Position numbers and translations under genes: made by a program
Notes under the pieces: model-generated
Database searches by the model: none
What the model was told of the DNA's origin: nothing
The model's input: only the letters and a program-made list of their open reading frames with translations
NCBI RefSeq assembly: GCF_003334405.1
Contig: NZ_QOWM01000006.1
Origin: Escherichia coli
Lineage (GTDB): Bacteria; Pseudomonadota; Gammaproteobacteria; Enterobacterales; Enterobacteriaceae
Direction: 5' to 3' (one strand)
Length of the DNA stretch: 64,000 nt
Part shown: piece by piece, positions 10,055 through 12,790 of the stretch
How the letters are laid out: every line of letters begins with the position of its first letter
How positions within the stretch are numbered: position 1 is the stretch's first letter

Positions 10055-10546
10055 ATGCGCCGGATATTATCAGTCTTACTCGAAAATGAATCAGGCGCGT
10101 TATCCCGCGTGATTGGCCTTTTTTCCCAGCGTGGCTACAACATTGAAAGCCTGACCGTTGCGCCAACCGACGATCCGACATTATCGCGTATGACCATCCA
10201 GACCGTGGGCGATGAAAAAGTACTTGAGCAGATCGAAAAGCAATTACACAAACTGGTCGATGTCTTGCGCGTGAGTGAGTTGGGGCAGGGCGCGCATGTT
10301 GAGCGGGAAATCATGCTGGTGAAAATTCAGGCCAGCGGTTACGGGCGTGACGAAGTGAAACGTAATACGGAAATATTCCGTGGGCAAATTATCGATGTCA
10401 CACCCTCGCTTTATACCGTTCAATTAGCAGGCACCAGCGGTAAGCTTGATGCATTTTTAGCATCGATTCGCGATGTGGCGAAAATTGTGGAGGTTGCTCG
10501 CTCTGGTGTGGTCGGACTTTCGCGCGGCGATAAAATAATGCGTTGA
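10055..10546 (+). CDS. ilvH: Acetolactate synthase III small regulatory subunit, 163 aa
   Basis: [36 protein letters not shown]... (ACT-domain type), begins 2 nt after the ilvI stop. Confidence 0.96.
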
Positions 10547-10570
10547 GAATGATCTCAATGCGCAATTTAC

Positions 10571-10600
10571 AGCCCAACATGTCACGTTGGGCTTTTTTTG
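10571..10600 (+). terminator. Rho-independent terminator after ilvH
   Basis: Hairpin cagcccaacatgtcacgttgggct followed by ttttttt. Confidence 0.8.
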
Positions 10601-10725
10601 CGAAATCAGTGGGAACCTGGAATAAAAGCAGTTGCCGCAGTTAATTTTCTGCGCTTAGATGTTAATGAATTTAACCCATACCAGTACAATGGCTATGGTT
10701 TTTACATTTTACGCAAGGGGCAATT

Positions 10726-11730
10726 GTGAAACTGGATGAAATCGCTCGGCTGGCGGGAGTGTCGCGGACCACTGCAAGCTATGTTATTAACGGCAAAGCG
10801 AAGCAATACCGTGTGAGCGACAAAACCGTTGAAAAAGTCATGGCTGTGGTGCGTGAGCACAATTACCACCCGAACGCCGTGGCAGCTGGGCTTCGTGCTG
10901 GACGCACACGTTCTATTGGTCTTGTGATCCCCGATCTGGAGAACACCAGCTATACCCGCATCGCTAACTATCTTGAACGCCAGGCGCGGCAACGGGGTTA
11001 TCAACTGCTGATTGCCTGCTCAGAAGATCAGCCAGACAACGAAATGCGGTGCATTGAGCACCTTTTACAGCGTCAGGTTGATGCCATTATTGTTTCGACG
11101 TCGTTGCCTCCTGAGCATCCTTTTTATCAACGCTGGGCTAACGACCCGTTCCCGATTGTCGCGCTGGACCGCGCCCTCGATCGTGAACACTTCACCAGCG
11201 TGGTTGGTGCCGATCAGGATGATGCCGAAATGCTGGCGGAAGAGTTACGTAAGTTTCCCGCCGAGACGGTGCTTTATCTTGGTGCGCTACCGGAGCTTTC
11301 TGTCAGCTTCCTGCGTGAACAAGGTTTCCGTACTGCCTGGAAAGATGATCCGCGCGAAGTGCATTTCCTGTATGCCAACAGCTATGAGCGGGAGGCGGCT
11401 GCCCAGTTATTCGAAAAATGGCTGGAAACGCATCCGATGCCGCAGGCGCTGTTCACAACGTCGTTTGCGTTGTTGCAAGGAGTGATGGATGTCACGCTGC
11501 GTCGCGACGGCAAACTGCCTTCTGACCTGGCAATTGCCACCTTTGGCGATAACGAACTGCTCGACTTCTTACAGTGTCCGGTGCTGGCAGTGGCTCAACG
11601 TCACCGCGATGTCGCAGAGCGTGTGCTGGAGATTGTCCTGGCAAGCCTGGACGAACCGCGTAAGCCAAAACCTGGTTTAACGCGCATTAAACGTAATCTC
11701 TATCGCCGCGGCGTGCTCAGCCGTAGCTAA
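10726..11730 (+). CDS. cra: Catabolite repressor/activator Cra (FruR), LacI family, 334 aa
   Basis: GTG start at 10726; N-terminal [25 protein letters not shown]; 334 aa. Confidence 0.96.
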
Positions 11731-12250
11731 GCCGCGAACAAAAATACGCGCCAGGTGAATTTCCCTCTGGCGCGTAGAGTACGGGACTGGACATCAATAT
11801 GCTTAAAGTAAATAAGACTATTCCTGACTATTATTGATAAATGCTTTTAAACCCGCCCGTTAATTAACTCACCAGCTGAAATTCACAATAATTAAGTGAT
11901 ATCGACAGCGCGTTTTTGCATTATTTTGTTACATGCGGCGATGAATTGCCGATTTAACAAACACTTTTCTTTGCTTTTGCGCAAACCCGCTGGCATCAAG
12001 CGCCACACAGACGTAACAAGGACTGTTAACCGGGGAAGATATGTCCTAAAATGCCGCTCGCGTCGCAAACTGACACTTTATATTTGCTGTGGAAAATAGT
12101 GAGTCATTTTAAAACGGTGATGACGATGAGGGATTTTTTCTTACAGCTATTCATAACGTTAATTTGCTTCGCACGTTGGACGTAAAATAAACAACGCTGA
12201 TATTAGCCGTAAACATCGGGTTTTTTACCTCGGTATGCCTTGTGACTGGC

Positions 12251-12280
12251 TTGACAAGCTTTTCCTCAGCTCCGTAAACT
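12251..12280 (+). promoter_or_regulatory. Candidate sigma-70 promoter of the dcw cluster (Pmra)
   Basis: -35 TTGACA at 12251-12256 and -10-like TAAACT at 12275-12280 (18-bp spacer), about 50 bp upstream of the mraZ ATG. Confidence 0.6.
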
Positions 12281-12287
12281 CCTTTCA

Positions 12288-12313
12288 GTGGGAAATTGTG
12301 GGGCAAAGTGGGA
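12288..12313 (+). promoter_or_regulatory. Three direct GTGGG repeats, candidate MraZ operator
   Basis: GTGGGaaattGTGGGgcaaaGTGGGa: three GTGGG units with 10-bp periodicity between the promoter and the mraZ start, matching the MraZ autoregulatory repeat architecture as I recall it. Confidence 0.6.
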
Positions 12314-12331
12314 ATAAGGGGTGAGGCTGGC

Positions 12332-12790
12332 ATGTTCCGGGGAGCAACGTTAGTCAATCTCGACAGCAAAGGGCGCTTATCAGTGCCTACCCGTTATCGG
12401 GAACAGCTGCTTGAGAACGCTGCCGGTCAAATGGTTTGCACCATTGACATTTATCACCCGTGCCTGCTGCTTTACCCCCTGCCTGAATGGGAAATTATCG
12501 AGCAAAAATTATCGCGTCTGTCGAGCATGAACCCGGTTGAGCGCCGTGTGCAGCGCCTACTGTTAGGTCATGCCAGCGAATGTCAGATGGATGGCGCAGG
12601 TCGATTGTTAATCGCGCCAGTACTGCGGCAACATGCCGGGCTGACAAAAGAAGTGATGCTGGTTGGACAGTTCAACAAGTTTGAGCTGTGGGATGAAACA
12701 ACCTGGCATCAACAGGTCAAGGAAGATATCGACGCAGAGCAGTTGGCTACCGGAGACTTATCGGAGCGACTGCAGGACTTGTCTCTATAA
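12332..12790 (+). CDS. mraZ: Transcriptional regulator MraZ, 152 aa
   Basis: [38 protein letters not shown]...; first gene of the dcw cluster. Confidence 0.96.

Follow-up and report, generated by a model that had tools for sequence, protein, structure and literature searches.

The 601-bp gap between cra and mraZ was analyzed within a 64,000-nucleotide stretch of Escherichia coli DNA (contig NZ_QOWM01000006.1; here, the window). Our analysis indicates that this gap is probably not spacer DNA but an extended upstream control region of the dcw operon (mraZ-rsmH-ftsL-ftsI-mur...), with a conserved distal promoter (here, P2) upstream of Pmra, the promoter that adjoins mraZ. The promoter stands on firmer ground than the control region as a whole: P2 is very probably real and initiates in vivo. 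As an element it is of a familiar sort, a distal promoter in tandem with another and accompanied by operator-like sites, and it was previously visible only in high-throughput data. The dcw operon is among the most studied in bacteria, and its published first promoter is Pmra, with a 38-nt 5' untranslated leader; P2 goes unmentioned in these reports (PMC5089854, PMC3265435). We found no paper that mentions the cra-mraZ gap by name and no targeted study of P2 or of the conservation pattern in a literature search that took in few subscription journals, so that this absence is weak evidence.

In the window, cra occupies positions 10726-11730 and the ATG of mraZ lies at 12332. The gap between them (11731-12331) had been described as gene free in a first-pass annotation made from the sequence, and both the gene ends and the K-12 RefSeq annotation, with zero features inside the gap, agree with this. 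The region is that of E. coli K-12, and its gene coordinates in K-12 RefSeq agree with those in the window. Window positions are obtained by subtracting 77302 from K-12 MG1655 positions; MG1655 89003-89702 equals window 11701-12400 base for base, and the gap corresponds to MG1655 89033-89633 at 100% identity. The gap sequence was found in 5,424 of 5,426 complete E. coli genomes, and no annotated feature lies under the match in the 20 records listed out of these 5,424. Among feature-free gaps in the first 50 kb of the window it is second in length to leuL-leuO (659 bp), in keeping with its earlier listing among the longest noncoding intervals. Its AT-rich character also holds, with GC contents down to 0.31 to 0.47 versus 0.5 to 0.6 in the flanking genes. 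Where the first-pass annotation was too pessimistic is the upstream 500 bp, in which it could assign no feature: a σ70-type promoter is readable at 12023-12058 and appears in two published high-throughput data sets. Both halves of the refuting condition that the first-pass annotation had set for itself fail: transcription starts are not limited to that of Pmra, nor is conservation limited to the promoter-proximal 100 bp. Three more + strand Cappable-seq starts, together with conserved islands up to about 520 bp upstream of mraZ, indicate that something is present in the gap.

The distal promoter P2

The features that carry this finding are as follows.

12015..12055, + strand: P2 core, with the -35-like hexamer CTGTTA at 12023-12028 (within island B), an 18-bp variable spacer, and the -10 hexamer TAAAAT at 12047-12052
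12058 (K-12 89360), + strand: P2 transcription start, Cappable-seq score 9.4
12041..12087, + strand: island C (ATGTCCTAAAATGCCGCTCGCGTCGCAAACTGACACTTTATATTTGC), made up of the P2 -10 followed by a GC-rich discriminator and then by the first 30 bases of the transcript
12251..12312, + strand: Pmra, with -35 TTGACA at 12251-12256, -10 TAAACT at 12275-12280, and start at 12288 (promoter scan; Cappable-seq 89590)
12288, 12298, and 12308 (span 12288-12312): three GTGGG repeats with a 10-bp period, read from the sequence

Pmra and the three repeats are thus present where the first-pass annotation had placed them. The + strand starts mapped by Cappable-seq (Ettwiller et al. 2016, PMC4782308) lie at K-12 positions 89143 (relative read score, 6.2), 89237 (2.1), 89360 (9.4), and 89590 (27.2; Pmra), which convert to window positions 11841, 11935, 12058, and 12288. 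The read score of P2 is about one third of that of Pmra (9.4 versus 27.2), and the start predicted from the P2 hexamers falls near 12058-12060. A reporter-assay tiling found two distinct + strand promoters, with minimal regions 89317-89357 and 89547-89587 (bioRxiv 10.1101/2020.01.04.894907, supplementary table 1). The former is window 12015-12055, which contains exactly the conserved -35-like block plus the -10, and this 41-bp fragment suffices for promoter activity in the published assay; the latter (89547_89587_+) is window 12245-12285, the minimal reporter promoter of Pmra.

The -10 hexamer has the features expected for σ70, with A at position 2, T at position 6, and an end 6 nt before the mapped start, and it is invariant in all 75 sequences of the alignment described below. 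It is followed by the GC-rich discriminator GCCGC (12053-12057) and then CGCG, and GC stands immediately after the hexamer in all species aligned. The -35-like CTGTTA matches TTGACA at three of six positions, has an identity of 0.90 at a fixed distance, and was not called by a simple consensus promoter scan; the spacer between the two hexamers has a mean identity of 0.32. Island C has sharp edges, with 83% of its columns at 90% identity or more, and its deepest-conserved core, TAAAATGCnGnnnGCGTCGCAAA, is retained in the divergent lineages L084, L085, and L088.

P2 and Pmra (mraZ1p) are both of the σ70 type, point in the same direction, and precede the same genes, and serial promoters feeding one long operon are a known pattern at the 3' end of dcw (ftsQ2p/1p, ftsA, ftsZ) (PMC3265435). 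P2 differs from Pmra in lying 230 bp upstream, in its weak -35 and 18-bp spacer, and in its GC-rich discriminator; at P2, conservation is tighter over the initial transcribed region than over the -35. A further comparison is with stringently controlled promoters such as rrnB P1, which reads TTGTCA, 16 bp, TATAAT, GCGCCACC, +1. P2 shares with it a near-consensus -10, GC directly after it, and a GC-rich discriminator (TAAAAT-GCCGC versus TATAAT-GCGCC), as well as a suboptimal -35 and a spacer that is not 17 bp. However, the spacer is 18 bp rather than 16 bp, the start base is T/C/G rather than A/G, and no UP element or Fis sites were recognized at P2. A discriminator like that of rrnB P1 would make for short-lived open complexes, and it suggests, less firmly than the read-through discussed below, that P2 may be sensitive to growth rate or to guanosine tetraphosphate (ppGpp)/DksA.

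Conservation of the gap across Enterobacteriaceae

The comparison drew on the cra loci of 80 species, namely, the 80 closest Cra relatives in one-genome-per-species GTDB contigs, which are nearly all Enterobacteriaceae; Yersiniaceae, Erwiniaceae, and Morganellaceae loci lie outside the sample. Seventy-five of these loci reach far enough downstream and were aligned with MAFFT. In every one of the 75, mraZ comes next after cra, and the gap measures 556 to 662 bp in 73, the exceptions being a 733-bp gap (L063) and an IS5 insertion (L002). The alignment consists of sharp-edged islands on a background no more conserved than silent sites. Mean identities to the window were as follows.

cra third-codon positions: 0.53
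Island A, 11918-11934: 0.90
Island A', 11946-11965: 0.70
Island B, 12023-12030: 0.90
Island C, 12041-12087: 0.92
Island D, 12135-12173: 0.85
Pmra/untranslated-region block: 0.86
Segments between islands: 0.32 to 0.55

The distances between the conserved blocks were as follows.

cra stop to 11813 box: 33 to 131 bp, variable
11813 box to island A: 107 to 112 bp in 68 of 71 sequences, 99 to 100 bp in three
Island B to P2 -10: 25 bp in 63 of the 70 sequences with both motifs; the other 7 look like spurious motif matches
Island C end to island D: 61 to 63 bp
Island D 3' part to Pmra -35 block: 89 bp in 41 of 44 sequences
P2 -10 to Pmra block: 199 to 204 bp

Because island spacing is nearly fixed, the conserved unit is a module of about 520 bp that extends from the 11813 box to mraZ; the cra terminator region is the only part of the gap whose length varies freely. 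Divergent lineages (Apirhabdus/"Erwinia sp. HR93", bacterium 4M9, and Tenebrionibacter) retain GCTGTT-N18-TAAAATGCnGnnnGCGTCGCAAA together with the island D core ATTCAnnnCGTTAATTT. Of the 5,424 E. coli genomes, 4,314 match the 71-bp P2 segment at 99% identity or more, and 1,362 match the whole gap that closely. A repeated element was ruled out, as island C is single copy in 5,424 of 5,426 E. coli genomes. The remaining parts of the module are these.

11813..11827, no strand assigned: RcsB-box-like pseudo-palindrome (TAAGACTATTCCTGA; here, the 11813 box), at the 5' edge of the length-constrained module
11918..11935, + strand: island A (GCATTATTTTGTTACAT), with the weak start 11935 (K-12 89237; Cappable-seq score 2.1)
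11946..11965, no strand assigned: island A' (TTGCCGATTTAACAAACAC), covering roughly +12 to +31 relative to the 11935 start
12135..12173, no strand assigned: island D (TTTTTTCTTACAGCTATTCATAACGTTAATTTGCTTCGC), spanning +78 to +116 relative to P2 and -153 to -115 relative to Pmra

The 11813 box, islands A and A', and island D look like operators, to judge from their sequences. The box has the family consensus T[A/C][A/G]GA-N4-TC[C/T]nTA. Its T1, G4, A5, T10, and C11 are invariant in 75 of 75 sequences, position 3 is always A or G, and position 12 holds C or T in 74 of the 75 and falls in an alignment gap in the other, while the N positions vary; the core pattern T-N-R-G-A-N4-T-C-Y occurs in 71 of the 75. 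For the RcsB box, the published consensus is TN(G/A)GAN4TC(T/C)NA (PMC7913699). The 11813 box fits seven of its eight defined positions (1, 3, 4, 5, 10, 11, and 12), and its conserved and variable columns reproduce the RcsB consensus at positions 1 to 13. Like the RcsB boxes of rprA, osmC, flhDC, and ftsA1p, it is a 14-bp pseudo-palindrome, and the columns that vary in its family alignment are the N, R, and Y positions of the RcsB consensus. Unlike them, it has T, G, or C at position 14, with a conserved A one base further out, and it lies at -21 from the 11841 start, -115 from 11935, and -238 from 12058, which are atypical distances for an RcsB box. RcsB has already been linked to ftsA/ftsZ expression (PMC7913699), and an incomplete literature search identified no paper that ties RcsB to the region upstream of mraZ. 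These likenesses suggest, with less confidence than for the read-through considered below, that the 11813 box may be bound by RcsB or by another regulator of the NarL/FixJ family.

Island A appears to supply the -10 and the start of the weak 11935 promoter, a candidate "P3"; its -10-like hexamer is TATTTT in E. coli and TATTAT in most genera. Island A' takes the form of a pseudo-palindrome, GCTGAATTAACAGC, in many other genera, and RNAalifold found no consensus hairpin in 72 island A/A' segments. Island D, whose core TATTCATnnCGTTAATTT is retained in L084, L085, L086, and L088, may be an operator or a leader element.

Proposed read-through, the predicted long leader, and competing explanations

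In the proposed arrangement, the 5'-to-3' order would be the cra terminator hairpin, the 11813 box opening the module of about 520 bp, the weak island A promoter (11935), P2, island D, and Pmra with the GTGGG repeats. By read-through, P2 would add to Pmra as another source of dcw expression, and P2 transcripts that reach mraZ are predicted to carry a 274-nt leader. We infer that transcription from P2 continues past Pmra into mraZ and the dcw genes, a conclusion held less firmly than that about the control region itself. The evidence is indirect: a terminator scan found no site in the gap (11731-12331), published Term-seq data list no 3' end between K-12 positions 83641 and 89783, and bicyclomycin data show no Rho-dependent region on the + strand of K-12 79798-107527. 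The weak hairpin and T-run to which the first-pass annotation had drawn attention (12207-12228) did not hold up: the segment folds at -8.3 kcal/mol (z = -0.92), 38 of 200 shuffled sequences fold as well, and the proposed 3-bp stem is missing from the minimum-energy fold. It was rejected as a terminator, as it folds like shuffled sequence and drew no call in the terminator scan.

Several points weigh against the reading of the gap as a control region built around P2. The -35 of P2 is poor (3/6 to TTGACA), and its mapped start base is T, which is unusual. In the genomic systematic evolution of ligands by exponential enrichment (SELEX) paper on σ70 RNA polymerase, cra and mraZ are not among the genes flanking constitutive promoters. 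The SMRT-Cappable-seq supplements list nothing for the locus. In the natural E. coli strain 4/4 (L002; NZ_CP023826.1), IS5 has inserted at CTAA just before or overlapping the P2 -10, at the equivalent of window 12045-12049. The IS5 end replaces the P2 -35, and TAAAATGCCGC... is kept. Because IS5 thus separates the P2 -35 from the -10 in a natural strain, an intact P2 is not essential; strain 4/4 lives with a rebuilt P2. With regard to the 11813 box, position 14 is never A but T (57 sequences), G (10, including E. coli), or C (8), and strict membership among RcsB boxes therefore fails; moreover, a seven-of-eight match is not rare by chance, the exact RcsB consensus alone being expected about twice per 64 kb. 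Finally, ppGpp control, RcsB binding, and protein binding at islands A, C, and D come from sequence inference only.

The palindrome after cra, which bears on both termination and transcription from the other strand, is the cra terminator hairpin.

11745..11776, + strand: cra terminator hairpin, with 10-bp perfect arms at 11745-11754 and 11767-11776 and a 12-nt loop

It had been reported with 7-bp arms; the structure is real, and the arms are 10 bp long. Its folding energy on the + strand is -20.1 kcal/mol (z = -2.95), and on the - strand it is -23.3 kcal/mol (z = -3.49). A strong stem-loop follows the cra stop in every species examined, its sequence being unconserved (mean identity, 0.34), and many genera have a canonical GGCAGC...GCTGCCTTTTTT terminator there. 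In E. coli, AGAGTACG comes after the stem and an A-run stands 5' of it, which gives a T-run on the minus strand; the hairpin of Escherichia has lost its 3' U-run. It therefore has the GC-rich stem-loop of an intrinsic terminator and not the U-run, and Term-seq lists no 3' end at it. Since in E. coli the hairpin is terminator-like only on the minus strand, where ATTTTTGTT comes after it, one could imagine a minus-strand transcript that starts in the gap and ends there, and the folding energy on that strand is consistent with such an end. We consider this very unlikely, though the test is a weak one, as the start-site data used covered the + strand: the promoter scan found no minus-strand site, the U-run lies on the + strand in most genera, as expected of a cra terminator, and the only Rfam match on that strand is noise.

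A different product of P2 would be a discrete small RNA (sRNA), or a leader RNA such as UpsM of Rhodobacter sphaeroides, with islands C and D as its base-pairing or protein-binding parts. In R. sphaeroides the dcw leader, from a promoter that likewise lies far upstream of mraZ, is 268 nt long (compared with the 274 nt predicted for P2) and yields the sRNA UpsM (PMC5089854). In E. coli, the start at 12058 is followed by 30 nearly invariant transcribed bases and by a second invariant block about 80 to 115 nt downstream, and the T-run at 12221-12226 is semi-conserved. However, an Rfam scan of 11500-12600 with E values up to 10 gave only a chance-level match (E = 7.1), to sR084 and on the other strand. 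In 73 leaders taken from 12058 to mraZ, RNAalifold found no consensus structure outside the Pmra/ribosome-binding-site end and no consensus pairing over the first 200 nt or so; its consensus was empty over islands C-D and A-A'. Neither a Term-seq 3' end nor a Rho region occurs in the gap, and the hairpin ahead of the T-run is not significant. This explanation is therefore unlikely. As a leader, UpsM is still the nearest functional analog of the predicted P2 transcript, but all that they have in common is the idea that dcw has a long leader: the two are not similar in sequence or by Rfam, the P2 leader is without a Rho-independent terminator or detected 3' end, and E. coli has its own promoter adjoining mraZ, whereas R. 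sphaeroides has no start site exclusive to mraZ (PMC5089854).

The islands might also be sites for nucleoid or architectural proteins (H-NS, Fis, IHF, and others) that organize or silence an AT-rich spacer, in which case the extra starts would be spurious and contribute nothing to dcw. The gap is AT-rich, fixed spacing with free sequence suits phased protein binding, and the genome-wide density of Cappable-seq starts, about 1 per 570 nt per strand (PMC4782308), makes the weak starts 89143 and 89237 unremarkable. Yet architectural proteins need no 47-bp near-invariant, GC-containing sequence with sharp edges, and the P2 start, with a score about one third of that of Pmra, agrees in position with a conserved -10 and with a 41-bp minimal promoter that was mapped independently; we regard this reading as quite unlikely. 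An unannotated small protein is extremely unlikely. The candidates are a 44-amino-acid open reading frame (ORF), 12051..12185, and its 19- to 21-amino-acid C-terminal part, MTMRDFFLQLFITLICFARWT, which overlaps island D. The ORF exists, island D encodes a hydrophobic FFLQ(L/I)FITLI in many species, and the frame is open from island C through D in E. coli, Klebsiella, and Raoultella. In many species, however, the start codon is absent or in-frame stops occur; the C-to-D distance of 100, 101, or 102 nt breaks the frame; the ATG (12051) comes before the P2 start (12058); and no gene is annotated there in K-12 RefSeq or in the 20 listed E. coli records. Where the TATTCATAA anchor matched and the island D frame was translated (24 of 75 sequences), no conserved ORF appeared. 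Island D is equally conserved at all three codon positions, without wobble-biased substitutions. The short ORFs 11896..12099 (+) and 12151..12369 (-) also exist, and they were rightly set aside as spurious by the first-pass annotation, as no ORF is conserved through the islands.

Returning to P2 as a second promoter of dcw, the fixed island spacing points to DNA phasing rather than RNA structure, and the invariant segment from +2 to +13 (CGCGTCGCAAAC), island D, and islands A/A' would be binding sites for proteins. It is conceivable, though we give it only limited credence, that the TAAAATGCnGnnnGCGTCGCAAAC... start region, island D, and the box/island A pair, held at fixed distances, form an undescribed family-wide control layer that acts on dcw through P2 and not through Pmra. 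This layer could be a phased or looped nucleoprotein complex, or it could be the 274-nt leader, behaving unlike the mRNAs from Pmra. An example of how the long isoform might differ is given by RNAalifold, which pairs the Pmra spacer (12257-12274) with the Shine-Dalgarno region of mraZ (12318-12331); this pairing between spacer and ribosome-binding region is possible only in transcripts that start upstream of Pmra. Either form, if true, would couple the dosage of division and cell wall genes to growth rate or envelope stress. P2 and the operator-like sites offer a testable route from growth rate or envelope stress to these genes, and older constructs in which "Pmra" was replaced or insulated would also have disconnected P2. 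Even if P2 contributes little, the 500 bp left unexplained becomes a map of individually mutable elements.

Pmra, its surroundings, and neighboring sites

Further sites in the gap are the following.

11841 (K-12 89143), + strand: weak start, Cappable-seq relative read score 6.2, with the likely -10 TATTAT at 11829-11834
12241..12256, no strand assigned: CRP-like site TGTGA-N6-TGACA (TGTGActggctTGACA), overlapping the Pmra -35, read from the sequence

The GTGGG repeats at 12288-12312 are presumably MraZ-type TGGGN binding repeats; the basis for binding of GTGGG repeats by MraZ was reportedly provided by Eraso et al. in 2014. The spacer between the Pmra -35 and -10 (AGCTTTTCCTCnGCTCCG, 12257-12274) hardly varies within the family, an unusual property for the spacer of a promoter. 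In the CRP-like site, conservation of the TGTGA half is confined to Escherichia, Salmonella, and Citrobacter. The presence of this site at Pmra fits the listing of mraZ as a new CRP target in genomic SELEX (PMC3105977), and a PdhR probe (12230-12273) that gave a weak shift (PMC3265435) encloses it. At 12221-12228, 62 to 67 bp upstream of the Pmra start, TTTTTTAC is semi-conserved even in divergent lineages, and its surroundings are not; this stretch may be an upstream A/T tract for Pmra. The likely -10 of the 11841 start was read from the sequence and is not conserved beyond Escherichia.

Other candidate motifs were compared by eye. A σ54 site was rejected because the GG/GC spacing is off by 2, and σE, σ28, LexA, PhoB, ArcA direct repeats, PurR/Cra half-sites, NrdR, Fur, IHF, Fis, TyrR, CpxR, EvgA, and DnaA did not fit both the sequence and the conservation pattern. 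Looping between islands C and D, suggested by an inverted similarity between CGTCGCAAAC in C and the reverse complement of TTTGC(C/T)TCG in D, about 103 bp apart, was likewise rejected, since the D arm is only moderately conserved and shows no covariation.

Upstream of cra, the only exact RcsB box match in the window, TGAGAATGATCTCA, lies at 10544-10557. It is a perfect palindrome and overlaps the stop codon of ilvH, the cra start site (K-12 87969) being about 116 bp further downstream; with about two matches expected per 64 kb, it may mean nothing. In the same ilvH-cra gap (10543-10644), an 87-nt "fruR/shl operon leader peptide" is annotated in some RefSeq E. coli genomes (strain 4/4). It is not annotated in K-12 RefSeq, where the locus tags skip b0079, and a matching ORF is present in the ORF list of the window.

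Among the genomes compared over the cra-mraZ gap, NZ_CM168054.1 ("E. coli strain MC4100_0.1s") is 98.2% identical to the window, though labeled a K-12 derivative, compared with 100% for MG1655; the record is possibly mislabeled, or the strain is possibly not MC4100. Inside mraZ, at 12481 (K-12 89783), a Term-seq 3' end and a Cappable-seq start fall on the same coordinate and strand, which is possibly a processing site, a pause site, or an artifact common to both methods.

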